Source: Candidatus Eiseniibacteriota bacterium
Lineage (GTDB): Bacteria; Eisenbacteria; RBG-16-71-46; JABDJR01; JAWXBZ01
DNA: 23,672 nt
Direction of reading: 5' to 3'
Assembly: GCA_034440375.1 (NCBI GenBank)
Contig: JAWXBZ010000134.1
Coordinates: 1 to 23,672 of the forward strand
Made by a program: the position numbers and the translations under genes. The notes under the pieces were generated by a model. That model was not told where the DNA came from. It was given only the letters and a program-made list of their open reading frames with translations, and ran no database searches. How positions within the stretch are numbered: the stretch's first letter is position 1; every line of letters begins with the position of its first letter. Shown in pieces: positions 1,805 through 21,209 of this stretch.

Positions 1805-2851
1805 TTATCGGCCGCCCCGGCCACCACCGCCGGTACCCTGGCCGCGCCCGCCCCGACGCCCACGGCGTCCCGGGTCGTCCAGGGTGGGCGGACCACCGCG
1901 ATCGCGCCGGCCGCCCGGAGGATCGATGCCGGGGGGCGGTCCGTTTGGATTCTTGCCACCCCGGGCCCGATCCCGGATGGCCCGAAGGATCTGGCCGGGC
2001 GGAATACCGCGGTCCAGCGCGCTCTTGATCTCCTTCTGGATCTCCATCGGATTGGCGCCCTGCTTGATGGCCTGCGCCACGCCGAACCCCAGGTCCTCAA
2101 GGGCCGGCCCACGGGCCCCGCCGGCATGAAGTTCGCGGACGAAGGCGAGACCCTGATCGGGGGGGAGGCCCTCGGCTGTCAGGCTGGTCAGGGCCAGGAG
2201 CGGCGCTCGTGTCGAGATGAGCCGGTCGGTCGGCGTGGGGCCGGCGGCAAATTCGGTCAATGTCGTCGTCAACGCCGTCGGCGGCACACCTTGATCGAGG
2301 GCAAAGGCGGTCTGATCGATCAGCCGGCGGCGCGCCTCGAAGGCCGTTGGAAGTGGGTTGCCCGCCGCGGGGCTCTTCGGGGGATGTCCCGCGTCGATAT
2401 CCGGAAACGCCGCGTCCACGAGCCGGCCGCTTTCCCGCAGGCGGCGATCGAGTTTGGTCACCGCGAAGTCGATTCGTTCCGGCGACGCCTTCTTGACCAG
2501 GCCCTGCCGCATCCGATCGAGCATCGGTTTGAGCGGCAGGCCGTCCTGTGCCAGGCCCGTCAGGGTGTTGACGAAACGTTCGAGTTGCTCATCCGACAGC
2601 CCCGCCGTCCGGCCGCGAACGAGCAGGTCATTCAGATCAGCCGCGGCGATGCCGGCGGTCGTGGCCCGTGCCGTCATGGTGCTGATGTCCCCGCCGGAAA
2701 CCGGCGATGATGCGGAACTCGGTTGTCCAAAGGCCAGCCGGGCCGGCAGGGGCATGAGCAGCACGACGAGAAGCACGACGATCCTTGTCGTCGCCGTGTT
2801 TCGTGTGGAACGTGATCTTGATGTCGTGGTGGCCAGTTTCATGTGCGTCAT
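1805..2851 (-). CDS. Secreted hypothetical protein with short helical repeats and Gly/Arg/Pro-rich tail
   Basis: Basic N-terminus plus hydrophobic segment IVVLLVVLLMPLPARLAFG (signal-peptide-like). Recurring helix-G(L/V/I/A)P-helix units. ATGA overlap with the upstream gene; alternative start ATG at 2842. Confidence 0.75.
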   Translation of the reverse strand: MTHMKLATTTSRSRSTRNTATTRIVVLLVVLLMPLPARLAFGQPSSASSPVSGGDISTMTARATTAGIAAADLNDLLVRGRTAGLSDEQLERFVNTLTGLAQDGLPLKPMLDRMRQGLVKKASPERIDFAVTKLDRRLRESGRLVDAAFPDIDAGHPPKSPAAGNPLPTAFEARRRLIDQTAFALDQGVPPTALTTTLTEFAAGPTPTDRLISTRAPLLALTSLTAEGLPPDQGLAFVRELHAGGARGPALEDLGFGVAQAIKQGANPMEIQKEIKSALDRGIPPGQILRAIRDRARGGKNPNGPPPGIDPPGGRRDRGGPPTLDDPGRRGRRGGRGQGTGGGGRGGR

Positions 2852-4239
2852 CTCGGGTTGGTGACACTGCTTGGACCGCCGCCGGCACCATCCGTTACAG
2901 GGGCGGCCACATCCAGCACGCCGTTCCGCTGGCCGAAGTCATCGTCCTCGTAGAGGTGGGCACCTTCCGGGGTGCGCCATTCCGTTGTATCTATATGAAA
3001 AATATAGCGATAGAGCCCCGGATCCAACTTGAGCGTCGTTTCCCAGACGCCATCCGGCGTGGGCCCGGTCATCGGGTGCGCCCCGGTTAACCAGTCGTTC
3101 ATGGTTCCGACCAGGTGAACCGAGGTGGCCCGGGGGGCCCGGCACCGGAAAGTGACGCCGTTGGCGCCGACGGTGGGCGACAGCGGATTCCGGGCGGGGG
3201 TCGTCGACCCGAATATCCCGGTATCCCATGGCCCAGGCGCCGCGGCCGCCGGCTGACCGAAGCGAAAACTCACTCCGCCGCTCAGCCGTGTCCGATCAAA
3301 GGCGTAATCGTCGAGGCTCGAGGCGTAATCGAGGTACGCCAGCCCGGCGAACAGCCTGGTATTCCCGACGATCCTGCGCTCCAGGTCGATTGCCAGCGAG
3401 ATGGAGACGTCCTCGCGGCCCACGCCGGGGCGGACGGCACCGGAGGGAAGTTGAATCGGATAGAGGAATCGATCGTAGTTGCGCCGTTCCCGTGCAATCT
3501 CTCCGCCAACGGCCCAACTTCGGCCAATATCGCCACTGATCCCGAAGGAGATTCGATCGCCGCCGTACTCGTACTGCCGGGAATTGCTGTCGACCGCGAG
3601 CCGGGCCACCATCGTGGACAGGCGCCAGCGCTCATTAAAATCGAAGCCGACCGCGAGTTCAAGTTCGTCCGGACGATCGATCTGTGTCTCTCCCCCGAGT
3701 GCCTGCGTGGTCCGTTCCGGGTAGGCGATGCGGGCCCGGCGCCAGGTGCCATGCAAGCTCCAGCGGTCGTCCATTTGCCAGATGGCCGCGGGCGCGGCTT
3801 CCTGTCGATTGAAGTCGTAGTCCTGAAACTCCGTTCGATGAAACCACTCGACTTCGCCGTCCAGGCGAAGCTGGACGTCCGGGGCGACACGAAAACCGAA
3901 ACCGGCCTGACCGCTGTTGTCATGGTAGGCGCCGGCTTCTTCGGATTCATAGGCGTTCAGCACATAGCTCCACCCCCCCGACAAGGAACAGCGTCCGGGG
4001 GCCCAGACGGCCCACAACGACGGTGCCAGGTTCATGTAGCCGGTTGCCAGAATAGGGAAGGAGCTGTTTTCGCCCGGACGGCCGAGGACATCATCGTCGT
4101 ATCCCCCGCCGGCCGACAGCTCGGCGCGCCAGGTGGAGGCTGCCATGGCAGTTGGGATGCCGAGCGGGGTCAGGGCCATCAGCCCGCCGACCAGAAAACC
4201 GCTGGCAGGGGAGGTACGGGTGAATCGAGTCAGGATCAT
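2848..4239 (-). CDS. Predicted outer-membrane beta-barrel protein with C-terminal CBM48/AMPK-beta-like glycogen-binding domain
   Basis: Signal peptide ending ...TAMAA. About 290 aa of alternating aromatic/Gly beta-strand pattern ending RLSGGVSFRF, then an Ala/Pro linker. C-terminal domain VTFRCRAPRATSVHLVGTMNDW...DGVWETTLKLDPGLYRYIFHIDTTEWRTP...DDFGQRNGVL. Confidence 0.8.
   Translation of the reverse strand: MILTRFTRTSPASGFLVGGLMALTPLGIPTAMAASTWRAELSAGGGYDDDVLGRPGENSSFPILATGYMNLAPSLWAVWAPGRCSLSGGWSYVLNAYESEEAGAYHDNSGQAGFGFRVAPDVQLRLDGEVEWFHRTEFQDYDFNRQEAAPAAIWQMDDRWSLHGTWRRARIAYPERTTQALGGETQIDRPDELELAVGFDFNERWRLSTMVARLAVDSNSRQYEYGGDRISFGISGDIGRSWAVGGEIARERRNYDRFLYPIQLPSGAVRPGVGREDVSISLAIDLERRIVGNTRLFAGLAYLDYASSLDDYAFDRTRLSGGVSFRFGQPAAAAPGPWDTGIFGSTTPARNPLSPTVGANGVTFRCRAPRATSVHLVGTMNDWLTGAHPMTGPTPDGVWETTLKLDPGLYRYIFHIDTTEWRTPEGAHLYEDDDFGQRNGVLDVAAPVTDGAGGGPSSVTNPR
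2871..2899 (-). promoter_or_regulatory. Candidate internal ECF promoter for the 1805-2851 gene (TGTAAC-N16-GGTCCAA)
   Basis: Minus strand reads TGTAAC GGATGGTGCCGGCGGC GGTCCAA, inside the unstructured 3' tail of the barrel gene and 20-30 nt before the next start codon. Confidence 0.5.
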
Positions 4240-4250
4240 CCTGACCGAGC

Positions 4251-4847
4251 TTACAGGAAGATGACTGCGTTACGGTTGCCGAAGCCGTCGTCGGTATGAA
4301 GCTCGGCGGCGGGGTCGGTGACCCACCCCTCGTCCACGACAAACATGTATTCGTGGCGCCCGGGAGGAAGATTCATCTGGATGCTCCACGTCCCTTCGGC
4401 TTCGTTCCGCACCAGCGGGACCTCGCAGACGGTCCAGTCGTTGAAGTCGCCGACGAGACAGACGCGCTGCGCAGTTGGCGCCTCGATCATGAACTGATGA
4501 GGAATGGACTCGCCGGCCTCGGCCTCGAGCCCCGGCGCGTTGGGCAGATCGGACGGCGTCCCCGGCTGGAGCGTCGCTTTCACCAGCCAGAGCGCCAGCG
4601 CGGCCGTGGCGAGGCCGGAAGTGAGGCGAACCACCGGAATACGCCACAGGGCCACCAGATGCGAGATCCATCCGCCGGTGGATTGGGTCACTGCCGGCTC
4701 ATCCTCGATGCGGGCCATGACCCGCGAGGCGAAACCGAGAGGTGCCTCGGCGCCATCGCCTCGACGGGCGGCCAGCGCCAGGCGCTCCAGTTGTTCGAGT
4801 TCCTGCCCGGTGGGCTCGGAGCCGCGGTTCGTCGTTTTGTCCGTCAT
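4251..4847 (-). CDS. Putative anti-sigma factor: cytoplasmic N-domain, one TM helix, C-terminal CBM48/AMPK-beta-like domain
   Basis: Directly downstream of an ECF sigma. Contains the anti-sigma-like segment APLGFASRVMARI and TM-like LTSGLATAALALWLV. C-terminus is HQFMIEAPTAQRVCLVGDFNDW...GTWSIQMNLPPGRHEYMFVVDEGWVTDP...DDGFGNRNAVI. ATG 4847 preferred to the start at 4910 that overlaps the sigma gene. Confidence 0.82.
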   Translation of the reverse strand: MTDKTTNRGSEPTGQELEQLERLALAARRGDGAEAPLGFASRVMARIEDEPAVTQSTGGWISHLVALWRIPVVRLTSGLATAALALWLVKATLQPGTPSDLPNAPGLEAEAGESIPHQFMIEAPTAQRVCLVGDFNDWTVCEVPLVRNEAEGTWSIQMNLPPGRHEYMFVVDEGWVTDPAAELHTDDGFGNRNAVIFL

Positions 4848-4875
4848 GGTCGTTACTTCGTTTCCCGGTTTCCCG

Positions 4876-5478
4876 CTAAAGGACGCCCCGCGCGCGGAGT
4901 GCCTGAACAATCATCTCGCGTGCCCGGTGCAATCGCACCTTTGCGTTGCCGACGCTGATACCCAGCACGCCGGCGATTTCTTCATACGGCCGTCCTTCGA
5001 TCTGCCGAAGGACGAAGATGACTCGATACGTTTCGGCCAACCCCGCCACCACCGTTTCGAACTCGCGAACGGCCTGCCGATCGAGCACGGCCTCGTCGCT
5101 GCCGAACCCCGGATCGGCGACGGGTACGAACCCCTTCGTCATCACTTCTTCGAGGGGGATTTCACCCGAGCGCTTCCGCCGACGCCCCAACCGGTCGTAA
5201 CACACATTCAAAGCGATCCGGTGGAGCCACGTCGACACGCGGGCCCGGTGCTCGAACCGCTCGAGCGCCCGCCAGGCCTTCACGAACACGTCCTGAGCTG
5301 CTTCCAGCGCCTCATCCCGGTTTTTCAGGAGCCGGAGCGTGACACCGACGATACGATCCTGATGTCGTTCGACCAGGCGGCGAAAAGCTTCTCCATCGCC
5401 GTTCCGGGCCAGTTCCACCAGTTGGTCATCGCTTTCAGCGGATTCGATTGGGCCCCCGTTCCTCGCCTCGTTTGTCAT
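4876..5478 (-). CDS. ECF (sigma-70 group 4) RNA polymerase sigma factor
   Basis: Region 2: DDQLVELARNGDGEAFRRLVERHQ..EAAQDVFVKAW..STWLHRIALN. Region 4: LAETYRVIFVLRQIEGRPYEEIAGVLGISVGNAKVRLHRARE. ATG 5478 is preceded by GAGG. Confidence 0.95.
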   Translation of the reverse strand: MTNEARNGGPIESAESDDQLVELARNGDGEAFRRLVERHQDRIVGVTLRLLKNRDEALEAAQDVFVKAWRALERFEHRARVSTWLHRIALNVCYDRLGRRRKRSGEIPLEEVMTKGFVPVADPGFGSDEAVLDRQAVREFETVVAGLAETYRVIFVLRQIEGRPYEEIAGVLGISVGNAKVRLHRAREMIVQALRARGVL

Positions 5479-5540
5479 GCCTCGGTCTGCCAGGGGCCCT
5501 CGACCCGCCGATCGATTAGAAGACCGGCGTCCACCCCGTA

Positions 5541-5568
5541 AGACCACCCCAACCCGGGCCCGGTTACA
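5541..5568 (-). promoter_or_regulatory. Candidate ECF promoter for the sigma operon (TGTAAC-N17-GGTCT)
   Basis: Minus strand reads TGTAAC CGGGCCCGGGTTGGGGT GGTCTTA, about 60 nt upstream of the ECF start. It fits the general ECF pattern of -35 AAC and -10 GTC. Confidence 0.6.
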
Positions 5569-5607
5569 GTTTTGCCCTTCCGGGCCGATCTTATTTCATG
5601 GCCGTGT

Positions 5608-5635
5608 TGTAACCTGGGCCGCACGGCGCGGTCAA
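5608..5635 (+). promoter_or_regulatory. Candidate ECF promoter for the lipoprotein gene (TGTAAC-N16-GGTCAA)
   Basis: Plus strand reads TGTAAC CTGGGCCGCACGGCGC GGTCAAA, about 55 nt upstream of ATG 5691. Confidence 0.62.
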
Positions 5636-5690
5636 AGGCAGCGGTATCACACACCCTAACCGATTGCCGCACCTCAAGAAGGAGACATCA

Positions 5691-6818
5691 ATGAATTTCA
5701 AGAAACGCTCCCCGGGACCGCTGGCCGCCGCGGTGGCCCTGCTGGCAGTCCTCAATGGCTGCGGCGACTCATCGACAAACGTAACCCCCGACGGATTCGG
5801 GCGGGTGACGGTGAGGATCACCGACGCGCCCGCCGTCGACCTGACCGACATTTCCAATCTCTATGTCACTTTCGATCGCCTGGTGGTTTTCCCCGAGGCG
5901 GACAGCATTCCCGCCGACACCACCGGTGACGGCCCGGAGCGGATCGAAATTCTGACATCCCCCATCACGTTTGACCTCCTCAGCCTGACCAACGGGCTCT
6001 CGGAAGCCCTGGGCCAGGCGGACCTGCCGGCGGGCAACTATCGCCGACTGGTTCTGGATCTCGCGCCGGATGGCGCCTGGTTGATTGAGGCCAACGGTGA
6101 CTCGCACGACGTCAAGGTGCCCTCGGGGCGCCTGATCATCAAGACTGACTTCACGGTGGAGGACGGCGAAAACACCGAGGTGCTGCTCGATTTCGATGTG
6201 GCGGCCTCCCTGCGCCTCAAGCAGACCGGCAACGGCAAGTACATCCTTCGTCCGGTTCTGCGCCAGCTTCCGGCTCTCCGGGATGCCGGCTCGATCGCGG
6301 GACAGGTTCTGGTGCAGACCGCCACCGGCCTGGTGTCGGCCGGCGACATCCTGGTGCCGAATCCATGGCGCGGAAGGCCGGGGCACAATAATGGCAACGG
6401 CCGTCGCCCCGGCGACAGGGGCAATCATGGCCGCCGTCCGGATGACCGGGCGATGGTGCCGCTCACGGTGGCCTTTCCGATGGTCGTGCATGCCCATGTC
6501 TTCGGCGATTCCGACGATGTCGGTGAGGATCATGACGACGACGGAGAAGACGAGGCGGTCCGCCCCGGCCTGAACCCGCTCGACCACCCGAATGACGGTA
6601 ATGACGATGTTCACCGCCCGCGCGGCCGTGGCACGCTGGTCGACAAGGACGGCGATTACCTGATCGCCCGCGTTCGGAAGAACGTCGAGTATGACCTGCG
6701 GCTCCTCGTTCACCCGCGTTCCGGCTTCGAGGTTGTTTCCGCACCGGCCAACATCCTGGTTGACGGCGACGAGACCGGTCAGGACTTCATCATCCGGGCC
6801 AAACCCGAAGCTCCTTGA
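5691..6818 (+). CDS. DUF4382-like lipoprotein with C-terminal beta-sandwich interrupted by low-complexity inserts
   Basis: AAGGAG RBS and lipobox LAVLNG-C. Family-like motifs GRVTVRITDAP, FDLLSL, LPAGNYRRLVL, VKVPSG, VLLDFDVAASL and GNGKYILRPVL. Confidence 0.82.
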   Translation: MNFKKRSPGPLAAAVALLAVLNGCGDSSTNVTPDGFGRVTVRITDAPAVDLTDISNLYVTFDRLVVFPEADSIPADTTGDGPERIEILTSPITFDLLSLTNGLSEALGQADLPAGNYRRLVLDLAPDGAWLIEANGDSHDVKVPSGRLIIKTDFTVEDGENTEVLLDFDVAASLRLKQTGNGKYILRPVLRQLPALRDAGSIAGQVLVQTATGLVSAGDILVPNPWRGRPGHNNGNGRRPGDRGNHGRRPDDRAMVPLTVAFPMVVHAHVFGDSDDVGEDHDDDGEDEAVRPGLNPLDHPNDGNDDVHRPRGRGTLVDKDGDYLIARVRKNVEYDLRLLVHPRSGFEVVSAPANILVDGDETGQDFIIRAKPEAP

Positions 6819-6872
6819 AGCATGCTGCCGTCGGGACGATAATCCCGACGGCGCATGTGATCCGCTTTGCCG

Positions 6873-6912
6873 AAACGAAACGGCGGCCCGCGTGGCCGTC
6901 GTTTCGTTTTTT
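6873..6912 (+). terminator. Intrinsic terminator after the lipoprotein gene
   Basis: Stem AAACGAAACGGCGGCC / GGCCGTCGTTTCGTTT with a 5-nt loop, running into a T tract. A second hairpin precedes it at 6821-6857. Confidence 0.8.
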
Positions 6913-6982
6913 CGTTTCCCCGGCCGGTGCCGCCCCATCGATTGCCGGACCGCCGCCGACCATCCCCCTGGACGCCGAACCG

Positions 6983-8530
6983 ATGACCGTGATGCTGGAC
7001 AGCTCAAACCGTGCGCTCCTTGCGCCGTATGTCACCAACCTCGACGGCCCGGTCTATGCGCTGCAGAACCTCCCCGAGGAGGTCGTGGCCGTCCTGTTCG
7101 CCTATTACAGCCGGAGCCGGGAGAGTCTGCGGGACAATCTTCTCCGGCTGATCAAGGAGGGGGATCTGGCGCTGACCCGGTCGGACAGTCCGGCCACGGA
7201 GTCCGCCAACATCGCCAGCGCCGACTTTCTGGCCCGCGCTGCCGAGAGGGCGCGGGCTTTCCACGAGAAGTGGGTGGTAGGCTACGGACACTCGTCGGTG
7301 GCCGAACATGCCGTGGTTCACCTGGCCATCGAAGAGGTGTCGATCGTGGCCAGCAAGGTCATTGAGGATGCCCGGCTTGCCTCGTACACGGAAAAATCGA
7401 CGCGCTATGTGCCGTTTGATACATCCTGCTATCACACCCCTGTTGCTTACACTGGCTCGACGCCCGCGGCCGGGGCGTGGCACCACGCCATCGATGCGTT
7501 GATGACAACCTACGACGGCTCCATGCCCCGCCTCGTCGATTGGTTCGTGGCCAACCGCGTGCCAAAAGAGGGCCAGAGCGACAAGGCCCACCTGTCGGCC
7601 TGCCGGGCCCAGGCTTGCGATGTCCTCCGCTACCTGCTGCCGGCCGCCACTCACACGAACCTGGGGCTCACGGCCAATGCTCGTGTGCTCGAAGCCATGC
7701 TCTCCCGGCTTTTATCTCACCCGCTGACCGAGGTGCGCGACATCGGTGGGCGCATGAAAACCGAGGCACTGCGCATCGTGCCAACGCTGATCAAGTACGC
7801 GGAACCATCGGTGTATCGAGCCGAAACGTCGGCCGCCATGCGGGAGCGGGCGGCAATGATCTTCGATAGTGCGCCGACGGGTGGCACCGAACTGAAACCC
7901 GCACGACTCGTCCGCTGGGATGACGATGCCGAAGAGCGGGTGGCCGAAGCGATCCTGGCCGGCGTGTCGAACCGCCCGGCGGAGGTCATTCGCGCCGCGG
8001 TGGCCGTCATGACCGCCCCGGCCCGCCGTGAGCTGCTGGCCGATTACGTCTCGCGCCGTGGCCGACACGATCCGCCGCTCCGGGCTCTCGAAGCCACGAC
8101 CATGACCTTTGAGATAGTCGTCGACTACGGTGCCTGGCGAGATCTGCAGCGCCACCGCCTGATGTCGGTGGAGGAGCAGCCGCTCACGCCTCATCTCGGA
8201 TACGAACGGCCGGATGTCCTCACTTCAGCCGGCCTCTCGGACGACTACAACCGGGCAATGGCGGCCGTGGAGGAGTCCTATCCACTTCTTCTGGCCGAAT
8301 CACCCGATGATGCCGCCTATGTCATCCCGCTGGCGTTTCGGAAACGGGCCTTTCTCACCCTCAATCTGCGGGAACTCCACCACATGGTTCAGCTCCGTTC
8401 GGCGCGGCAGGGGCACGCCTCCTACCGCCGGGTCGCCCAGGCAATGCACGCGGAATTTGCACGAATCCAGCCGGTTCTTGCGTCGGACATCCGCGTGGAT
8501 GGGAGTGATTATGACCTCAGCCGGGCCTGA
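6983..8530 (+). CDS. thyX: FAD-dependent thymidylate synthase, long tandem-domain form
   Basis: Motifs GYGHSSVAEH, SYTEKSTRY, DVLRYLLPAA and NARVL in the first half; DYGAWRDLQRHR, AAYVIPLA, NLRELHHMVQLRS and GHASYR in the second half. Start placed at ATG 6983, downstream of the terminator, and uncertain by a few codons. Confidence 0.88.
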   Translation: MTVMLDSSNRALLAPYVTNLDGPVYALQNLPEEVVAVLFAYYSRSRESLRDNLLRLIKEGDLALTRSDSPATESANIASADFLARAAERARAFHEKWVVGYGHSSVAEHAVVHLAIEEVSIVASKVIEDARLASYTEKSTRYVPFDTSCYHTPVAYTGSTPAAGAWHHAIDALMTTYDGSMPRLVDWFVANRVPKEGQSDKAHLSACRAQACDVLRYLLPAATHTNLGLTANARVLEAMLSRLLSHPLTEVRDIGGRMKTEALRIVPTLIKYAEPSVYRAETSAAMRERAAMIFDSAPTGGTELKPARLVRWDDDAEERVAEAILAGVSNRPAEVIRAAVAVMTAPARRELLADYVSRRGRHDPPLRALEATTMTFEIVVDYGAWRDLQRHRLMSVEEQPLTPHLGYERPDVLTSAGLSDDYNRAMAAVEESYPLLLAESPDDAAYVIPLAFRKRAFLTLNLRELHHMVQLRSARQGHASYRRVAQAMHAEFARIQPVLASDIRVDGSDYDLSRA

Positions 8531-14391: not shown

Positions 14392-15921
14392 CTAGAAAAC
14401 GATGAACAGGTAGTTGTCGTCACGCAGAATGCGCAGTACCGGGGCCCCGCCGGCCTTCTTGACCTCGTTTCGGAACTCATCGGCACTCTGGACCGGATTC
14501 TTGTTGACCTCGAGAATGACGTCGTCAGGGCGGAGCCCGGCCTGGGCGGCCGCACTGTTTGGCCCGATGCCGGTGACCAGCACGCCGCGCCGCTCCTTGA
14601 TCTCCAGTTCGCGGGCCTTGTCGGTGGTCAGGGTGGCAACAGATAAGCCCAGCTCGCGGTCGACCTGCGGGGTGTCGGACTCCTCTTCCTCGGCTTCCGG
14701 GGTCCCCCGGCCGGTATTTTCGGCCAGGTTGCTCGGCAGCTCGTCCAGTTTGACGCTGACGTCAAGCGTCGATCGATCGCGCAGGAGTGAGAGCTCGACG
14801 CTCGTGCCGGGTTTGGTAGTCGCGACCCGGTTGCGCAGGTCGGCGATGTCATCCACCGGGTGGCCGTCGAGCTTGGTGATGACGTCGTTGCTCCTGATCC
14901 CGGCGCGGTCGGCCGGGCTTCCTTCCGTAACGCCGGATACCACGACGCCGGTGGCATCCTTCGGGAGTCCAAGTCCCCTGGCGATTTTTTCGTCCACGTT
15001 GGCGATGTTCACGCCAATCCAGCCACGGGTGACTTTGCCGTCCTCGATCAGACTCTTCATGATGTAGCGGGCCATGTTGATTGGAATCGAGAACCCGACA
15101 CCGTTCGAGCCACCGGTCTGGGTGGCGATGGCCGTATTGATCCCGACCATCTCACCCCTCAGGTTGATGAGGGCGCCTCCCGAGTTGCCACGATTGATGG
15201 CCGCGTCGGTCTGGATGAAGTCTTCGTAGTCGGTGACGCCGACGTTACTGCGCCCCTTGGCGCTGACAATGCCGACCGTGATGCTGCGCTCGAGTCCGAA
15301 CGGGGCGCCGCAGGCGACGACCCATTCGCCGATCTTGACGTTGTCCGAGTTGCCGAAGGGAAGGGCCGGCATGTTGGTTCGGTCGACCTTCAATACCGCC
15401 AGGTCGGAACGGGGGTCGGTGCCGACGATGGTGGCATCCAGCAGCGTGTGGCGATCGAGGCGTACCTGAACCTTGTCGGCCTCGTTGACCACATGGTTGT
15501 TCGTCAGGATGTAGCCGTCGGCGCTCACGATGACGCCGGAGCCAAGGCCCCGGACTTCCTCGTCCTTCGGCTGATCGCCGTCCTGGAACGGGTTGCCGAA
15601 AAAGCGGCGCATGAATGGATCAGTGCCGCCGAACGGGAGGGGGGTCGACGCATTCTGAATTGTCCGCGAACTCGTGATGACCACGATCGAAGGCATCACG
15701 AGTTCGGCAACGTTCGAAAAGGTGGTCGTGGTCAGCGGGATTCCTGGATCGCCGCCCACCGGGAAATTGACCGCTTCGACCTGGGCCCCGATAGGGCTCG
15801 CCGTGGCGCTCGTTCCGGGAGACACCTTGCCGCCCATCTCGCCGAAAAGGAAGAGGCCGACAAAGGCGCCGAGAAATGCTGAAAGCGCCGCAACACCCAT
15901 TAACTCCCTGCGTTTGATCAT
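14392..15921 (-). CDS. HtrA/DegP-DegQ family serine protease with two PDZ domains
   Basis: N-terminal TM/signal segment. Catalytic triad motifs TNNHVV, DLAVLK and INRGNSGG, plus IQTDAAI. Two PDZ domains (GSPADRAGI, NSAAAQAGLRPDDVILEVN). Confidence 0.96.
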   Translation of the reverse strand: MIKRRELMGVAALSAFLGAFVGLFLFGEMGGKVSPGTSATASPIGAQVEAVNFPVGGDPGIPLTTTTFSNVAELVMPSIVVITSSRTIQNASTPLPFGGTDPFMRRFFGNPFQDGDQPKDEEVRGLGSGVIVSADGYILTNNHVVNEADKVQVRLDRHTLLDATIVGTDPRSDLAVLKVDRTNMPALPFGNSDNVKIGEWVVACGAPFGLERSITVGIVSAKGRSNVGVTDYEDFIQTDAAINRGNSGGALINLRGEMVGINTAIATQTGGSNGVGFSIPINMARYIMKSLIEDGKVTRGWIGVNIANVDEKIARGLGLPKDATGVVVSGVTEGSPADRAGIRSNDVITKLDGHPVDDIADLRNRVATTKPGTSVELSLLRDRSTLDVSVKLDELPSNLAENTGRGTPEAEEEESDTPQVDRELGLSVATLTTDKARELEIKERRGVLVTGIGPNSAAAQAGLRPDDVILEVNKNPVQSADEFRNEVKKAGGAPVLRILRDDNYLFIVF

Positions 15922-16063: not shown

Positions 16064-17332
16064 ATGAACATGGACAAGATTGTCGTCCGCGGTGGCCGCC
16101 CCCTCGAAGGGACGATTGACGCCGCCGGGTCAAAAAACGCGGCTCTCCCAATCCTGACGGCCGCCATTCTGGCGCCCGGCGCCTACCGATTCACCAACGT
16201 CCCCCTCCTGCGGGACGTGACCACGATGGCCCGACTCCTCGAAACGCTCGGCGCCCGGTTTCATCAGGAGGGGCACGAACTTCATCTCGATACGACCGGG
16301 GTGGAGTCGATCGAGGCTCCCTACGACCTGGTTAAGACGATGCGGGCCTCTGTTTATGTTTTAGGTCCATTGCTGGCCCGGTTCGGTTCAGCCCGAGTTT
16401 CCCTCCCAGGTGGCTGCGCCTGGGGGCCCCGCCCGATCGACCTCCATTTAATGGGGATGAAGGCCCTGGGGGCCGAGGTGACCCTGGAGGAAGGATATGT
16501 CGTAGCTCATGCGGAAAAGTTGACGGGTGCGGATATCGACCTCGGAATTGCCTCGGTCGGCGCCACCGGCAATATCCTGATGGCGGCCGTGTCCGCCCGG
16601 GGCACGACGCGGATCCGCAACGCCGCCCGCGAGCCGGAAATCCCCGCCCTGGCCGAGTTTCTGAATGCCATGGGGGCCCGGATCAGCGGAGCCGGTACCG
16701 GTGAGATCGTGATCGAGGGGGGGGCGCCCCTGAAACCGGCTCCAGCCCGGATCATCCCGGACCGCATCGAGGTCGGGACCTACCTGATAGCCGGGGCCAT
16801 GACCGGAGGCGATGTCACGCTGACCGGCTGCCGGGTCGACCACATTGCCGCCCTCCTGGGCCGCCTCGTCGAGATAGGCGCCCGAATCGAGGAGCGGGAC
16901 GGAAACATCCGGGTCCGCGGCCCCGCGCGGGTCGGAGCGTTCGTGCTCAAGACCGATTACTACCCGGGTTTTCCGACCGACCTGCAGGCTCAGATGATGG
17001 CCATGGCCGCCGTGGCATCCGGACGAAGCGTCCTGACCGATACGGTCTACACCGATCGCTTCACGCATGTGGCCGAGCTTCAGCGGCTCGGCGCCGACAT
17101 CCAGATGGAAGGGAACATGGCGGTCATCAACGGGATCGAACGGCTCTCCGGCGCACAGGTCATGGCCACGGATCTCCGTGCCTCCGCCGCGCTCATCCTG
17201 GCCGGACTCGTGGCCGAGGGCGAGACGCATGTCTCCCGGGTCTATCACATCGACCGGGGCTACGAACGGATCGAAGAGCGGCTGACGAAGCTGGGCGCGG
17301 ACATCCGCCGCGAAACCGAATCAGGGCCGTGA
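16064..17332 (+). CDS. murA: UDP-N-acetylglucosamine 1-carboxyvinyltransferase
   Basis: GSKNAALP, APYDLVKTMRAS, LPGGCAWGPRP (active-site Cys present), NAAREPE, PGFPTDLQAQ, ATDLRASAAL, HIDRGYE. Start is 16064 or 16070. Confidence 0.99.
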   Translation: MNMDKIVVRGGRPLEGTIDAAGSKNAALPILTAAILAPGAYRFTNVPLLRDVTTMARLLETLGARFHQEGHELHLDTTGVESIEAPYDLVKTMRASVYVLGPLLARFGSARVSLPGGCAWGPRPIDLHLMGMKALGAEVTLEEGYVVAHAEKLTGADIDLGIASVGATGNILMAAVSARGTTRIRNAAREPEIPALAEFLNAMGARISGAGTGEIVIEGGAPLKPAPARIIPDRIEVGTYLIAGAMTGGDVTLTGCRVDHIAALLGRLVEIGARIEERDGNIRVRGPARVGAFVLKTDYYPGFPTDLQAQMMAMAAVASGRSVLTDTVYTDRFTHVAELQRLGADIQMEGNMAVINGIERLSGAQVMATDLRASAALILAGLVAEGETHVSRVYHIDRGYERIEERLTKLGADIRRETESGP

Positions 17333-19263
17333 GCCCACGCCGCTTCGCGGTCTTCGGCACCGCCGGCCACATCGATCACGGCAAGACCGCGCTCGTCCGC
17401 CTGCTGACCGGCGTCGACACCGATCGGCTCAAGGAGGAGAAGGAACGGGGCATTTCCATTGACCTGGGGTTCGCCAGCCTCGTCCTGCCGGACGGTACCG
17501 AGTGCGGCCTCGTCGATGTTCCCGGGCACGAACGCTTCGTCAAGAACATGCTCGCCGGCGTTGGAGGCATCGACGCGGTCCTCCTGGTGATCGCGGCGGA
17601 TGAAGGGGTCATGCCGCAGACCCGGGAGCATCTGGACATCATCCGGTTGCTCGATATTCACCGCGGCGTGATCGTGCTGACCAAGTCGGACCTCGTCGAG
17701 GCGGAGTGGCTCGAATTCGTGACCGAGGAAGTGCGCGAGTACCTGGCGGATGGGCCGCTGGCACACCTCCCCATCGTGCCGGTTTCCTCGAAGACCGGCG
17801 CCGGCCGCCTGGAACTACTCTCCACGCTCGCCACGGTTCTGGCCGACCTTCCCGAGCGACCATCAGATCGACCGGCGCGATTGCCGATCGATCGAGTCTT
17901 CAGTGTGGAAGGGTTCGGCACGGTCGTCACCGGTACGCTGTGGCAGGGAACCCTGCGGCCGGGCGACCGCATGATGGTTGAGCCCGGTGGGATCATGACC
18001 CGGCTGCGGTCGGTCCAGGTTCACGGTCACGATGTCGAGGAGGCTCGAGCCGGCCAGCGCACCGCGGTGGCGCTTCACGGGGTGGAAAAATCCGCCATCG
18101 AGAGGGGGCACTGGGTCGTGGCGCCCGATTCCGTGACGCCGTCGTTCATGGTGGATGCGCGGGTCCATCTCGTGGCGGATGCCGCGAAGTCGCTCAAGAA
18201 TCGCCAGCGAATCCGATTCCACCTCGGCGCCAGTGAAATTCTTGGCCGGGTTGTTCTCCTCGACCGGGAGGAACTTGAGCCGGCGACATCGGCCATGGCA
18301 CAGATTCGGCTGGAGGGCCCCGTTCTCGCCGAACGGGGCGATCGATTCGTGTTGCGAAGCTACTCGCCCCAGCGGGCCATCGGCGGCGGTGTCATTGTGC
18401 TGCCGAACCCCGTCAAGCACCAAAGGCACGACGCGACCACGGTGGCCCGGCTAGAGGTTGAAGCCGAAGGGGGGCCGCTGGAGCGAACCATCCAGGCGCT
18501 GGCCGAATTCACGATGGCGGTTGACTCGACACGCGTGGCGCGCGCCGCCGGACTCGAACCAGAAACGACCGGGGAGGCGCTCGACCAGCTGGCGGGAGAG
18601 GGGCGCGCCTGGCATCTTGACGATGGCCGCTTTCTGGCGGCATCGACCGGGGAGCAATTGGAGGCCCGACTTCTCGATGTGGCCCGCGCCTGGCAGTCCG
18701 GCTCACCGTATCGCTGGGGTCTTGCCAGGGGCGATCTCAAGAGTCAACTGCCGAAGGATGTCGATCCAGCCCTGTTCGATCATCTGACCGGCCGCCTGCT
18801 GGCGGCGAAAAAGCTCCTCGAACGGGACGACCGGTTTCGGGCCGATGGTGAGCCCGCGCCGCTTGGGGAACGGGATGCCGCAAGGCTGTTGCGGATTCGC
18901 GAGGCGATCACGGCGGGCGGATATGCGCCACCGACGGTCAAGGATCTGGAAACGGAAATGGCAATGGGCGGGGTGCTCGTCGAAATTCTCACCTCGTTGA
19001 CAGCGGAGGGAGAACTGGTCAAGGTGGCCGCGGATTTCTACTATCCACGCGCAAGGCTCGAGGCGATGGCCGCGGGCCTCCAGGGATTTTTTGCCAAACG
19101 AAGCGAGATGCGAGTGGCCGATCTCAAGGATCTCTTCGGGATATCCCGTAAGCATGCGGTGCCGGCACTCGAATATTTCGACCGGTTGGGCGTCACGCGT
19201 CGACTCGGCGATGTCCGGGTGGCCGGACGGCTTCTGACCGCCGCCGATACCGGGACTCCGTGA
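17329..19263 (+). CDS. selB: Selenocysteine-specific translation elongation factor
   Basis: [72 protein letters not shown]-terminal winged-helix SECIS-binding motif [16 protein letters not shown] start overlaps the murA stop. Confidence 0.97.
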
Positions 19264-19838
19264 CCGCGCTTCCCCCATCGACTCCCCGCGTGGACGGTCC
19301 GAGCGATTCGACGCTGGCGGTCCGGGCCCGTGACGGGGATGGCCACGCCTTCACCGAACTGGTTCGCCGCCACCAGGAACGGGTGTTCCGGATCGTCTAC
19401 CGGATGCTTCGAAACCGCGACGAAGCCGAGGATGTCACCCAGGTGACATTTGTCCGGGCCTTCCGAAGCCTCCTCAAGTTCAAGGAGGAGTTCGCTTTTC
19501 ACCCCTGGCTTTATCGAATTGCTGTGAACGCGTCACTGACGCATATCGAAAAACGGAAGCGGGAGAAGCTGGTTGACATCGAACAGGTGCCCGAGCGTTT
19601 GGTGCTCCGGCCGTCCGGGGAAGAATCGCCACTGGAGGCGGTCGGGCGCCGGGAGATGATCGACCGTATCCAACGGGCCCTGCCGGAACTGCCGGAGGAG
19701 CAGCGACTTGTCTTTCTCCTCCGGGTCAATGAAGGGCTCAGCTATGAGGAAATAGCCGAAACGCTGGATATCCCGCGCGGGACAGTCATGTCCCGATTGT
19801 CACGAGCCAGGGAAGCTTTGAGGAAAATGCTGGTATAG
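19260..19838 (+). CDS. ECF sigma factor
   Basis: Region 2: ARDGDGHAFTELVRRHQ..AEDVTQVTF..WLYRIAVN. Region 4: LPEEQRLVFLLR..GLSYEEIAETLDIPRGTVMSRLSRARE. GTG overlaps the selB stop. Confidence 0.95.
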   Translation: MTALPPSTPRVDGPSDSTLAVRARDGDGHAFTELVRRHQERVFRIVYRMLRNRDEAEDVTQVTFVRAFRSLLKFKEEFAFHPWLYRIAVNASLTHIEKRKREKLVDIEQVPERLVLRPSGEESPLEAVGRREMIDRIQRALPELPEEQRLVFLLRVNEGLSYEEIAETLDIPRGTVMSRLSRAREALRKMLV

Positions 19839-19891
19839 GCTTTTCCGGTCCACCGCCGGGAGCTGATCTGCGACGGAAAGGAACATGAGGC

Positions 19892-21163
19892 GTGTCCGAG
19901 GCGAAGTTCGAGGGAAGTCATCCTGGCCCGGAGTGGCTGTCGGCCTGGCATGACGGGGAATTACAAGATTCGGCAGCGGCCGCGGTGGGAGCGCATCTCG
20001 AAGCCTGCGCCGATTGCCGCAACGCCATTGAGGCGTTCCGCCAGCTTGACCAGTCGGTCCGGCAGGGGGACGACGCCCGCCCCGCGCCAGAGGCCTGGGA
20101 GGCCATCGAGCGGCGCCTCCGGTTGCGGCTCGAGGACGAGCTGGGTCTTGGCGTTCCGATGGGGGCAACCAGGCGTTACGTCGAATCGGACGCCGAGCTG
20201 GTGCTCCTCCCCACACCTCGCGAAATCCAGACCGGCCGCGGCGCCCGCCCATTCCGACTCCGGTGGGCCATGGCCACGGCGGCCGGCCTGACCGTGGCTC
20301 TCCTGACGATTCGGACGATCAGTGACCGCGACTGGACGGTCGGAAAGGTGATCAATCCGGTTCCGGACCGACATCGCGAGGTGGCCGCCGTCGAGCCGCT
20401 TCCCTCAACCCATCAGGAAGCGGAGGAGCGCCTCCGGAATATGAAAAGTGCCAACGCGACATCAGGCGGAAATGCGCCAGTCGTTGCGGCGCCCAGCCCC
20501 GCGGCCTCCAGCCCCGCGGCGCCAAACCTCGCCGGGCCACCGGCCACCGCTCCCTCCGAAACCGAGGTCGCTCGGCCCGAAAAGGCGCTTGAGAAATTCG
20601 AGGTAGCCACTTCGCCCCGCGAGTACCTGGCCGAAGTGGATCAGGTGATTCGCAAGGAGGCGGCACTCGGTTCCACCCAGTCGGCGCCCGCATCGGACCT
20701 GTCGATGGATGAATCTCGATCATGGGGCGTCGCGGCCAGGAACTCGGCCGAGGCCGGGAAGACGAGCGCACAATCGAGCACGGATCCCGAATACGCCATG
20801 GTGTTTGCCGCGGCCAGTCGGGCCCGTGAGGCCGGCAATCAGGCCCTTGCCCGGCGCGGATTCGCGCTGGTTCGCGCCGGGATTCCCGAAGATGATCTCG
20901 CTCGCGAGGCGGAATACGAGGAGACTCTGGCCACGGCCCGCATGGAGATTGCGAATGGTGGTGACCAGGTGGTCATCACCCAACGACTCAACGATGACGC
21001 GGCCTCCTCATGGGACGCCCACGCCCCGGATCAGAAGCTGACCTGCCGAACGGCACTGGCCGACCTCCGCGCCGCGATGACCCTGGCCAGGGAACTGGGT
21101 CGACCGCTACCCCTGGAAGACGTGGACACCCGCCTGCAGCAACTTCGTTCGTGTGCCCGCTAG
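19892..21163 (+). CDS. Zinc-binding (ZAS/zf-HC2) membrane anti-sigma factor with long extracytoplasmic region
   Basis: HP..WLSAWHDGEL..HLEACADC (HxxxCxxC), TM segment WAMATAAGLTVALLTI, Pro/Ala linker and helical C-terminus. Follows the ECF gene. Confidence 0.88.
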   Translation: MSEAKFEGSHPGPEWLSAWHDGELQDSAAAAVGAHLEACADCRNAIEAFRQLDQSVRQGDDARPAPEAWEAIERRLRLRLEDELGLGVPMGATRRYVESDAELVLLPTPREIQTGRGARPFRLRWAMATAAGLTVALLTIRTISDRDWTVGKVINPVPDRHREVAAVEPLPSTHQEAEERLRNMKSANATSGGNAPVVAAPSPAASSPAAPNLAGPPATAPSETEVARPEKALEKFEVATSPREYLAEVDQVIRKEAALGSTQSAPASDLSMDESRSWGVAARNSAEAGKTSAQSSTDPEYAMVFAAASRAREAGNQALARRGFALVRAGIPEDDLAREAEYEETLATARMEIANGGDQVVITQRLNDDAASSWDAHAPDQKLTCRTALADLRAAMTLARELGRPLPLEDVDTRLQQLRSCAR

Positions 21164-21209
21164 CGCCGACGCCAACTCGACGCCTCGCTCCGTTGTCCCG
21201 TCCCCTGTC

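Follow-up and report, generated by a model that had tools for sequence, protein, structure and literature searches.

ECF sigma factors are among the major signalling routes of bacteria, and beyond the model organisms the signal of most ECF groups has yet to be identified. The locus described here raises the question of what such a sigma factor might respond to when its gene stands beside genes for two envelope proteins that each end in a CBM48 domain. It lies in the window, by which is meant the whole 23,672-nt stretch of Candidatus Eiseniibacteriota DNA that was analysed, and an ORF check confirmed its reading frames at the coordinates first assigned to them (1805..6818). The initial annotation had described a minus-strand series of sigma factor, transmembrane (TM) CBM48 protein, barrel-CBM48 protein and helical protein, and this order is borne out by the ORFs, Pfam and AlphaFold2; the three families that it had named (CBM_48, AMPK1_CBM and DUF4382) were all matched in Pfam. 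The module is a real, widely conserved and so far unstudied bacterial signalling gene set.

An ECF sigma gene followed by two CBM48 genes

In the product of the sigma gene (4876..5478, minus strand), Pfam recognises Sigma70_r2 (2.2e-17, at 58-125) and Sigma70_r4_2 (1.8e-16, at 162-212) but does not match region 3, so that regions sigma2 and sigma4 are the only ones present. The NCBIfam model TIGR02937 (sigma70-ECF) scores 96.9 bits (cut-off 42.9), and no NCBIfam equivalog model rises above its own cut-off. By these matches the protein is a member of the ECF (group 4) sigma-70 factors, of 200 aa when read from the ATG at 5478. This ATG is most likely the start, rather than the GTG at 5547, because a promoter motif occupies 5542-5568 and the frame opened by the GTG would contain the sigma's own promoter. 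The nearest solved sigma factors are of the SigH/AlgU type, SigW and RpoE (E 7e-26 to 1e-21). The terms glycogen, CBM, isoamylase, DUF4382, Gemmatimonad and Nitrospir are all absent from the main text of the 2021 ECF reclassification.

The next gene (4251..4847, minus strand), identified through Pfam, hydropathy and a family alignment, follows the sigma stop after a gap of 29 nt, and its product most likely starts, as in its closest relatives, at the ATG at 4847, giving a protein of 198 aa. The C-terminus matches AMPK1_CBM (5.2e-12, 46.2 bits against a cut-off of 26.8) and CBM_48 (8.7e-08, 32.8 bits against 22.4) in Pfam. There is a single hydrophobic stretch, of moderate strength (KD19 1.55), at residues 70-88 of the 198-aa form, and the predicted layout is a cytoplasmic N-part (~1-70), a hydrophobic segment (~70-92) and a periplasmic CBM48 domain (~125-198).

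The third gene (2848..4239, minus strand) encodes a protein of 463 aa. In its AlphaFold2 model (mean pLDDT 81.5) a helix at the N-terminus precedes 14 strands (36-328), and a disordered linker (331-350) leads on to a beta-sandwich (356-444). Residues 357-446 of the protein match CBM_48 (1e-08, 35.8 bits against a cut-off of 22.4) and AMPK1_CBM (1.5e-06, 28.7 bits against 26.8) in Pfam. It is thus predicted to be an outer-membrane protein with a signal peptide, a 14-stranded beta-barrel, a linker and a C-terminal CBM48 domain. The best Foldseek match of the barrel is OmpG (2iwv, E 3.6e-08, TM by target 0.69) and the second named barrel is CymA (4d5b, TM by target 0.61), a likeness of fold only, with 8-14% sequence identity and no Pfam membership for the barrel. 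Foldseek matches among barrels largely reflect strand number. Pfam reports no glycoside hydrolase on either CBM48 protein, and no FecR or TonB-dependent receptor domain on any of the five proteins, both as the initial annotation had held.

The gene for the putative secreted helical-repeat protein (1805..2851, minus strand) begins with an ATG that overlaps the barrel gene stop by 4 nt. AlphaFold2 (pLDDT 82.4) models the 348-aa product with a hydrophobic N-terminus, then a run of 13 helices (54-298) and last a disordered C-terminal tail rich in Gly, Arg and Pro (G19, R10 and P9 of 50). It belongs to no family in Pfam or NCBIfam and has no Foldseek match at E<=0.001; in a further structural comparison the best matches (VIA Z 9.7) were designed repeat proteins, with no natural relative. 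Its sequence relatives form 128 representative clusters at E<=0.001. The divergent gene (5664..6818, plus strand), previously taken to encode a lipoprotein, lives up to that description, with a Pfam match to DUF4382 (1.3e-26) and an LNGC lipobox recognised by eye (...LLAVLNGC...). Its product, whose probable start is the ATG at 5691, carries an insert rich in Asp, Gly, Arg and His and has no solved relative at E<=1.

Recurrence across lineages and the tethered second domain

The gene set recurs in 9/9 Candidatus Eisenbacteria genomes of the same order, where tblastn located the sigma, the anti-sigma CBM and the barrel in all nine, the helical gene in eight and the DUF4382 gene in seven; the ninth helical gene was detected by HMM on the same contig (L028). 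The genes flanking the module in the window are shared with only one of these genomes, G001. A wider survey (408 candidate stretches, 338 relatives, the best 80 kept, at least eight named lineages) found the core also in Gemmatimonadota, Vicinamibacteria, Nitrospirota and other lineages. The module is common in Eisenbacteria and the three phyla named, which abound in soils and sediments and have hardly been cultured. Among the best 80 of the 338 relatives, the sigma gene lies directly upstream of the TM-CBM48 gene in every locus (80/80), a helical homologue lies downstream in at least 70 (56 of the 62 with at least 2.5 kb of room), and the second CBM48 gene is present in 67. Conservation of gene order elsewhere, on which the initial annotation had made its proposal depend, thus holds both among the Eisenbacteria relatives and across lineages.

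It might be argued that the TM-CBM48 protein is no anti-sigma factor, and that together with the barrel protein it is a structural component of the envelope, the two being co-transcribed targets of an ECF sigma that is controlled in some other way. The window protein has no anti-sigma match in Pfam (zf-HC2, RskA) and its N-part is truncated, being some 35 residues shorter than that of most relatives in the family alignment, as such a role would allow. Its place directly after the sigma gene in all of those 80 loci, in many phyla, tells against this. So do the longer relatives, which have an LHxxLDGE-type N-terminus and sub-threshold zf-HC2 matches (three of five tested, at 20.4 bits for P0014, 14.0 and 13.2, against a cut-off of 22.2), features typical of class I anti-sigma factors, and so does an AP-x-x-F-x-x-R-V-M helix conserved before the membrane stretch, in which P36 and V43 are invariant. 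No HxxxCxxC motif was seen. A purely structural role appears very improbable on this evidence. An anti-sigma role is preferred here; given the short N-part and the missing Pfam match, that the 198-aa protein inhibits the sigma is therefore something that we infer solely from where its gene stands and from the family to which it belongs.

The second CBM48 protein does not everywhere have a barrel. In Vicinamibacteria and Nitrospirota it is just ~105-135 aa long and consists of the domain behind a hydrophobic leader ending in Cys, with LAAC in two Nitrospirota loci (leaders identified by eye, a scripted pattern having given none), and this short form is probably lipid-anchored. In Gemmatimonadota the N-domain did not match the barrel when their profiles were compared (hhalign probability 1.6%). 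Since a short form replaces the barrel in other phyla, the conserved feature, as far as sequence can tell, is a tethered second CBM48 domain and not a channel.

Such an arrangement could signal by protein contact, with the tethered outer-membrane CBM48 touching that of the anti-sigma, or with the helical protein bridging them, after the model of FecA-FecR or RcsF-IgaA and with no sugar as ligand. In keeping with this, the second CBM48 appears membrane-tethered wherever it was examined, through a barrel or a Cys-ending leader; the two CBM48 genes occur together in those 67 of the best 80 loci; and the anti-sigma CBM48 is very strongly conserved, holding most of the 22 columns that are invariant among 25 aligned sequences. 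Set against it are the 13 of 80 loci with no second CBM48 gene within reach, although some of these end at contig ends, and the conserved surface Trp residues, which are more typical of sugar platforms. We regard contact without a sugar as rather unlikely.

Predicted promoters and a probable small local output

One motif, TGTAAC-N16/17-(C/G)GTC, precedes the sigma, helical and DUF4382 genes, and all three sites lie in the window. Upstream of the sigma gene it reads TGTAAC-N17-GGTC (5542..5568, minus strand) and stands 63 nt before the ATG; a TGTAAC-N16-GGTC copy at 2874..2899 on the minus strand lies 22 nt before the helical ATG, within the 3'-terminal part of the barrel gene; and another at 5608..5633 on the plus strand precedes the DUF4382 gene and points away from the sigma promoter. 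ECF autoregulation typically involves a promoter whose -35 element is of the AAC type and whose -10 element is of the CGT type, and the predicted sigma promoter fits this pattern. With a single motif before these three genes, the switch seems to activate itself and to have a small output close by.

Against this reading, all three motifs in the window end in GGTC, where those of its relatives have CGTC. In Eisenbacteria-type loci the motif TGTAAC/CGTAAC-N16/17-CGTC precedes the sigma gene in 14 of 14, and an equivalent precedes the helical gene in 12 of the 13 that hold it and the DUF4382 gene in eight of nine, as well as in both Fodinibius loci (2/2). The looser pattern GT[AG]AC-N16/17-CGTC occurs before 46 of 79 sigma genes and 30 of 71 helical genes, set against a background, taken across all loci, of 0.02 matches per 250 nt. 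Over the whole genomes of five relatives, 12 of 26 strict matches fall inside the module, and a reversed control pattern gave 13 matches. In the window's own genome the loose pattern has 40 matches against ~60 expected by a rough hand estimate, which is near chance, and therefore no wider regulon could be defined. The helical protein is a candidate output of the switch through its promoter motif only.

Ligand, mechanism and relation to known systems

Both CBM48 domains keep the two tryptophans of the AMPK glycogen site (equivalents of W100 and W133), as W138 and W175 in the anti-sigma-like protein and W383 and W421 in the barrel protein. Where AMPK has K126, all 25 aligned members of the anti-sigma-like family have Met, and the second CBM48 has Ile or Ala. 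According to passages of PMC6274970, the substitution K126Q in the AMPK beta1 module abolished glycogen binding. An alpha-glucan is only a candidate ligand here. Of the interpretation in the initial annotation, the architecture is supported, whereas the reading of an alpha-glucan and contact between the two CBM48 domains are candidate mechanisms.

The module might nevertheless serve in sensing and uptake of alpha-glucan as a nutrient: the barrel would be an OmpG/CymA-like channel for maltodextrin or cyclodextrin, the CBM48 domains would bind the imported chains, and the sigma would induce use of starch or glycogen. The intact aromatic platform would suit this, as would the scores of both domains above the Pfam cut-offs for CBM_48 and AMPK1_CBM and the fact that structural comparison places 14-stranded sugar channels nearest to the barrel. 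Yet these matches largely express strand number; the barrel is missing from the short Vicinamibacteria and Nitrospirota proteins and is unlike the Gemmatimonadota N-domain by profile; the K126 equivalent is replaced in both domains; and the promoter motif marks the helical and DUF4382 genes, with no glycoside hydrolase or sugar transporter. A nutrient sensor is, on these grounds, decidedly unlikely.

Our preferred reading is a self-activating ECF sigma/anti-sigma module for envelope signalling. The 198-aa single-pass protein would hold the sigma at the inner membrane through its short cytoplasmic N-part and expose its CBM48 fold to the periplasm. The second CBM48 would be suspended in the periplasm by a flexible linker attached to the 14-stranded outer-membrane barrel; in an even-stranded barrel both ends face the periplasm. 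Both domains would most likely bind a single glycan of the envelope or periplasm, not necessarily a food alpha-glucan, and altered binding of this glycan might expose the anti-sigma to stepwise proteolysis, the last step falling to an RseP-type protease. Such a protease is encoded in the genome, which has three Peptidase_M50 matches (best 208.9 bits). Against this step, the conserved gene set includes no site-1 protease. The freed sigma would then transcribe from the three predicted promoters, namely those of its own operon, the helical gene and the DUF4382 gene, and the helical protein and DUF4382 lipoprotein would form the output, with the envelope as its target. The evidence leans modestly towards this mechanism taken as a whole. 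A bolder version, which we put forward tentatively as possible though doubtful, is that of a trans-envelope integrity sensor found across many two-membrane phyla and comparable with RcsF-IgaA and RseA-RseB: the inner- and outer-membrane-tethered CBM48 domains would hold the same glycan or each other, loss of the bridge on damage or remodelling of the envelope would free the sigma, and the sigma would induce, as repair or protection factors, the DUF4382 lipoprotein and the helical-repeat protein with its disordered Gly/Arg/Pro tail, the latter representing a new class of secreted protein.

RpoE-RseA-RseB of E. coli and AlgU-MucA-MucB of Pseudomonas each combine an autoregulated ECF sigma, an adjacent single-pass anti-sigma, a periplasmic partner and stepwise proteolysis. 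The module resembles them in its predicted autoregulation, adjacent anti-sigma and extra periplasmic partner, and presumably in proteolytic release; but RseA has no CBM fold in its periplasmic domain, RseB is not made of helical repeats, and, unlike the module, these operons encode no outer-membrane partner. In FecA-FecR-FecI, the gene for the inner-membrane regulator of an ECF sigma has as its neighbour a gene for an outer-membrane barrel that extends into the periplasm, and the module likewise places a predicted barrel protein with a periplasmic extension beside such a putative regulator. It differs in having, by Pfam, no FecR, TonB-dependent receptor or signalling domain, in a barrel modelled with 14 strands rather than 22, and in the short forms that replace this barrel in other phyla.

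The literature found, in which ECF overview papers are represented by main-text passages, contains no description of the module, in line with the statement in the initial annotation that no characterisation was known, and the module is a variant of ECF sigma/anti-sigma signalling not described there. Its combination of a sugar-binding-type fold in an unexpected compartment, an outer-membrane partner and a small predicted output of two uncharacterised proteins could bring to light either a glycan signal of the periplasm that is new or a novel role for the CBM48 fold, and its study would give first functions for the helical family and DUF4382. The module lends itself to direct tests, since its sigma, promoter and anti-sigma, as well as both binding domains, are transferable to a laboratory host.

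According to abstract-level descriptions, the polysaccharide-sensing RsgI anti-sigma factors of the RsgI/SigI systems of Clostridium (Acetivibrio) thermocellum are likewise single-pass proteins with a carbohydrate-binding-type module outside the membrane, and the final step of signalling is RseP cleavage in the membrane helix (PMC10328401, PMC4711584, PMC12203970). Those are Gram-positive systems, however, with SigI-type sigmas, CBM3- or PA14-like sensors facing the medium and cellulosome genes as targets, whereas the module joins an ECF sigma, in a two-membrane cell, to a predicted periplasmic CBM48, to another CBM48 that is probably tethered and to a helical partner; Pfam reports no RsgI domain on its proteins. 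The ECF52 factor SCO4117 of Streptomyces coelicolor, as a passage of PMC8999054 describes it, has its extension fused to the sigma itself, whereas here the extension is on a separate protein, with a second copy on an outer-membrane protein. The CBM48 of the AMPK beta-subunit (PDB 4y0g, 1z0m and others) belongs to the same Pfam families and shares the W100 and W133 equivalents, but it works in the cytosol as a component of a kinase, whereas the module's domains are predicted to be periplasmic and membrane-tethered and have K126 replaced. The monomeric sugar channels OmpG and CymA share strand number and overall fold with the predicted barrel but, unlike it, have no C-terminal CBM48.

Gene set, structural models and conservation of the module

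Contig C134, part of a 3.96-Mb genome in 264 contigs whose closest named relatives are Candidatus Eisenbacteria, carries four close-packed minus-strand genes within positions 1805-6818, as judged from the ORF list and from Pfam and NCBIfam scans. The first (4876-5478) encodes an ECF sigma factor (Sigma70_r2, 2.2e-17; Sigma70_r4_2, 1.8e-16; TIGR02937 above cut-off). A 29-nt gap separates it from the gene (4251-4847) for a 198-residue protein with a single moderately hydrophobic stretch (residues 70-88) and a C-terminal domain matching AMPK1_CBM (5.2e-12) and CBM_48; then, after an 11-nt gap, comes the gene (2848-4239) for a 463-residue protein ending in a second such domain (CBM_48, 1e-08, and AMPK1_CBM), which overlaps by 4 nt the gene (1805-2851) for a 348-residue protein that matches no Pfam or NCBIfam family. 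The divergent gene (5664-6818, plus strand) specifies a DUF4382 protein (1.3e-26) with a lipobox-like LNGC at its N-terminus. The module is flanked by housekeeping genes encoding PriA, an alpha/beta hydrolase, ThyX and Rho. ORFs, domains and models agree with the architecture proposed in the initial annotation, namely an ECF sigma factor, a membrane-spanning CBM48 protein, a barrel-CBM48 protein, a helical protein and a divergent lipoprotein; likewise, no glycoside-hydrolase domain was matched in these scans on either CBM48 protein, as had been claimed.

The model of the 463-residue protein, built with 21 homologues (mean pLDDT 81.5), consists of a leader helix and 14 strands between residues 36 and 328, which a disordered linker (331-350) joins to a beta-sandwich (356-444). 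Its nearest Foldseek neighbours are OmpG (2iwv; TM-score by target 0.69) and CymA (4d5b; 0.61), with FadL, TodX and general porins ranking next, and these matches to the model indicate a 14-stranded barrel and nothing as to function. The 348-residue protein, modelled with 65 homologues (pLDDT 82.4), begins with a hydrophobic leader, continues with 13 helices (54-298) and closes with a disordered tail in which Gly, Arg and Pro are abundant. Foldseek returned no natural structural relative of this model at E<=0.001; the best VIA matches (Z 9.7 and 8.4) are designed repeat proteins and lie below chance level for helical repeats, and an Atlas search gave unnamed clusters only. Relatives of the DUF4382 protein align with it chiefly across the first 200 residues; its residues from about 215 to 320 form an insert rich in Asp, Gly, Arg and Pro, with several His, whose composition looks like that of a metal-binding or disordered acidic region.

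Each of the nine genomes from the same family or order has a full-length match to the barrel protein with an adjacent second CBM48 match. When 14-kb stretches of these genomes were searched by tblastn, the sigma factor, the CBM of the 198-residue protein and the barrel were each found in 9/9, the helical protein in 8/9 (the ninth gene, at locus L028, was recovered by HMM) and DUF4382 in 7/9. The matched genes follow the same order; the flanks of the module are common only to the window and its closest relative. A wider scan, with one genome per species, yielded 408 candidate stretches, 338 of them relatives, and the best 80 were analysed using HMMs built from ten Eisenbacteria sets. All 80 loci come from metagenome-assembled genomes, and the labels of such bins may be wrong; the titles of the loci name Eisenbacteria, Gemmatimonadota, Vicinamibacterales, Nitrospirota/Thermodesulfovibrio, Latescibacterota, Krumholzibacteriota, Rokubacteria, Fodinibius and a few others. 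Among these best 80, the sigma gene lies directly upstream of the gene for the membrane-spanning CBM48 protein in every case, so that the gene order is kept well beyond the family; a helical homologue follows downstream in 70 (in 56 of 62 where 2.5 kb or more was available), and a second CBM48 gene is found in 67, downstream in 58 and upstream of the sigma gene in 8. The barrel N-domain and DUF4382 were matched in 16 and 11 of the same 80 loci, respectively.

The second CBM48 protein occurs in two forms. In the long form about 300 residues precede the CBM; the short form, found in Vicinamibacteria and Nitrospirota, is only about 105-135 residues long, with hydrophobic N-termini ending in Cys (LAAC in two Nitrospirota loci). 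Lipobox assignments were made by eye, a scripted pattern having given 0 matches among the N-termini. Comparison of profiles for the Gemmatimonadota long-form N-domain and the Eisenbacteria barrel gave a probability of only 1.6%, and because of this a barrel is not claimed for Gemmatimonadota. The short form and this dissimilarity together indicate that the conserved core, as read from sequence, comprises the sigma factor, the membrane-spanning CBM48 protein and the helical protein, along with a second CBM48 that is tethered.

The putative anti-sigma factor and the CBM48 domains

A sequence search with the 198-residue protein returned 522 relatives of similar length, 25 of which were aligned. 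An LHxxLDGE-type helix opens most of the 25, and all share an AP-x-x-F-x-x-RVM helix ahead of the membrane stretch. The window protein and its closest relatives do not have the first 35 or so residues, for which there is no space upstream of the gene; zf-HC2 gave sub-threshold matches in three of five longer relatives. No anti-sigma domain was matched in the window protein or its closest relatives, and its profile does not place it among the class I anti-sigma factors, because the N-terminal part is short and such a match is absent. The initial proposal of an inner-membrane anti-sigma factor is thus upheld in part: the position of the gene after that of the sigma factor, the family and the conserved juxtamembrane helix suggest this role, but no anti-sigma profile match accompanies them.

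The CBM48 of this protein is extremely conserved in the 25-sequence alignment (GDFNxW, W154, G163, YMF, D172, W175, DP and DDGFGN). HMMER aligned it to the CBMs of AMPK beta subunits (E 3e-07), placing W138 on the Trp of FNNW, M168 on the Lys of QYKF and W175 on the Trp of GQW. In the AMPK beta1 module, according to the review PMC6274970, glycogen binding is abolished by W100G and by K126Q, and weakened by W133L. Both glycogen-site tryptophans are invariant in the two CBM48 families of the module, and sugar binding is plausible from the sequences; but where AMPK has its lysine, the anti-sigma family invariably has Met, and the second CBM48 has Ile or Ala. Specificity for alpha-glucan, the ligand originally put forward, is not supported. 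A complex prediction for three periplasmic parts, with that of the putative anti-sigma factor as partner, scored 0.00 in a run without controls, a value that speaks for neither binding nor its absence.

CBM48 was also matched in four other long frames elsewhere in the window genome, and genomes of the same order contain frames of 1175-1267 residues with four or five tandem CBM48-like repeats outside any sigma context (for example, G003:C14:1633275-1634921, G005:C7:1243599-1244897 and G004:C4:1800-3119). These frames indicate that, at the level of predicted domains, the CBM48 fold is a common extracytoplasmic building block in this lineage.

A shared promoter-like motif and the predicted regulon

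The upstream regions of the sigma genes have in common the motif TGTAAC-N16/17-CGTC. In Eisenbacteria-type loci it precedes the gene for the sigma factor in 14/14, for the helical protein in 12/13 and for DUF4382 in 8/9. The three window copies, all ending in GGTC, lie before the sigma gene (5542-5568, minus strand), the helical gene (2874-2899, minus strand) and the DUF4382 gene (5608-5633, plus strand). Nitrospirota, Rokubacteria and Fodinibius also have the motif before the sigma gene, as does one locus labelled Chromatiaceae; in Fodinibius it stands ahead of DUF4382 as well. Gemmatimonadota have the variant TGTGAC-N16-CGTCTA. A site fitting the pattern GT[AG]AC-N16/17-CGTC stands ahead of the sigma gene in 46 of 79 cases and ahead of the helical gene in 30 of 71, against an overall 0.02 matches per 250 nt.

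In the whole genomes of five relatives the strict pattern matched 26 times (reversed control, 13); the module itself accounts for 12 of these, and the remainder fall mostly within long reading frames or repeats. A looser pattern matched 40 times in the window genome, where a rough hand estimate gave about 60 expected by chance, and yielded nothing secure. No conserved further target was found in these six genomes, and a small, local regulon is predicted.

A 427-residue protein on contig C221 carries a T9SS sorting tail that scores below threshold. A motif-bearing gene in G001, the closest relative, has only that tail in common with it, and the protein was therefore not accepted as a conserved target. 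In G001 a lipoprotein gene (contig C24, 1554-2369, plus strand; locus L128), with sub-threshold LTXXQ and DUF4890 matches (Spy/CpxP-like), begins 27 nt beyond a strict motif. It may be a further target, and was seen in G001 alone. Perfect TGTAAC-N16-CGTC copies are present at three contig ends of the window genome (C57, 9-40, and C59, 9-40, both minus strand; C178, 9282-9313, plus strand), within about 100 nt of near-identical sequence, the sequence downstream of the motif not being assembled; they could belong to a repeat, or mark a target, present in several copies, of this sigma factor or one related to it. Three identical 27-nt matches in another relative (G002:C1, at 568933, 889875 and 906758; loci L106, L111 and L116) probably mark a mobile element or a gene that is repeated in the genome, and not a promoter, because at least one copy lies within a long reading frame.

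Known systems, proposed mechanism and neighbouring genes

The module resembles RsgI/SigI in pairing a putative anti-sigma factor with a carbohydrate module, RpoE-RseA-RseB in having a periplasmic partner, and there is a hint of FecA-FecR in the outer-membrane partner; beyond an ECF sigma factor and a single-pass regulator, however, it shows the defining features of none of them. Literature searches found no description of anti-sigma factors with CBM48/AMPK1_CBM or glycogen-binding domains, nothing relevant on Eisenbacteria sigma factors and, for DUF4382, only archaeal glycoproteomics unrelated to the module. Term searches in three ECF overview papers found no description of the module, though one may be given where the supplements of PMC7826278 describe the ECF groups.

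The gene set is best read as an ECF switch that activates itself. The CBM48 protein of the inner membrane would sequester the sigma factor; its periplasmic CBM48 and the outer-membrane-tethered CBM48 might sense an envelope glycan or one another; and proteolysis, with an M50 protease as the last step, would release the sigma factor, which would raise expression of its own operon and of the genes for the helical protein and the DUF4382 lipoprotein. The parts list, its conservation and the motifs are observations, and the remaining steps are proposed by analogy with RseA, RsiW and RsgI. Peptidase_M50 has three matches in the window genome. About 8 kb from the module, and outside the conserved set, an HtrA/DegP-like serine protease with two PDZ domains (14392-15921, minus strand) is a possible candidate for the site-1 protease.

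The window contains a second ECF system (19260-23363, plus strand), comprising a sigma factor with Sigma70_r2 and r4_2, a 423-residue protein with an N-terminal zf-HC2 domain (29.3 bits) and a 736-residue protein without a Pfam match. The ThyX frame (6815-8530, plus strand) encodes 571 residues with two Thy1 stretches by Pfam, much longer than a typical single-domain ThyX, and its start codon is uncertain because the alignment with relatives begins at residue 71. A SelB-type selenocysteine elongation factor is encoded at 17329-19263 (plus strand), and the organism therefore probably uses selenocysteine.
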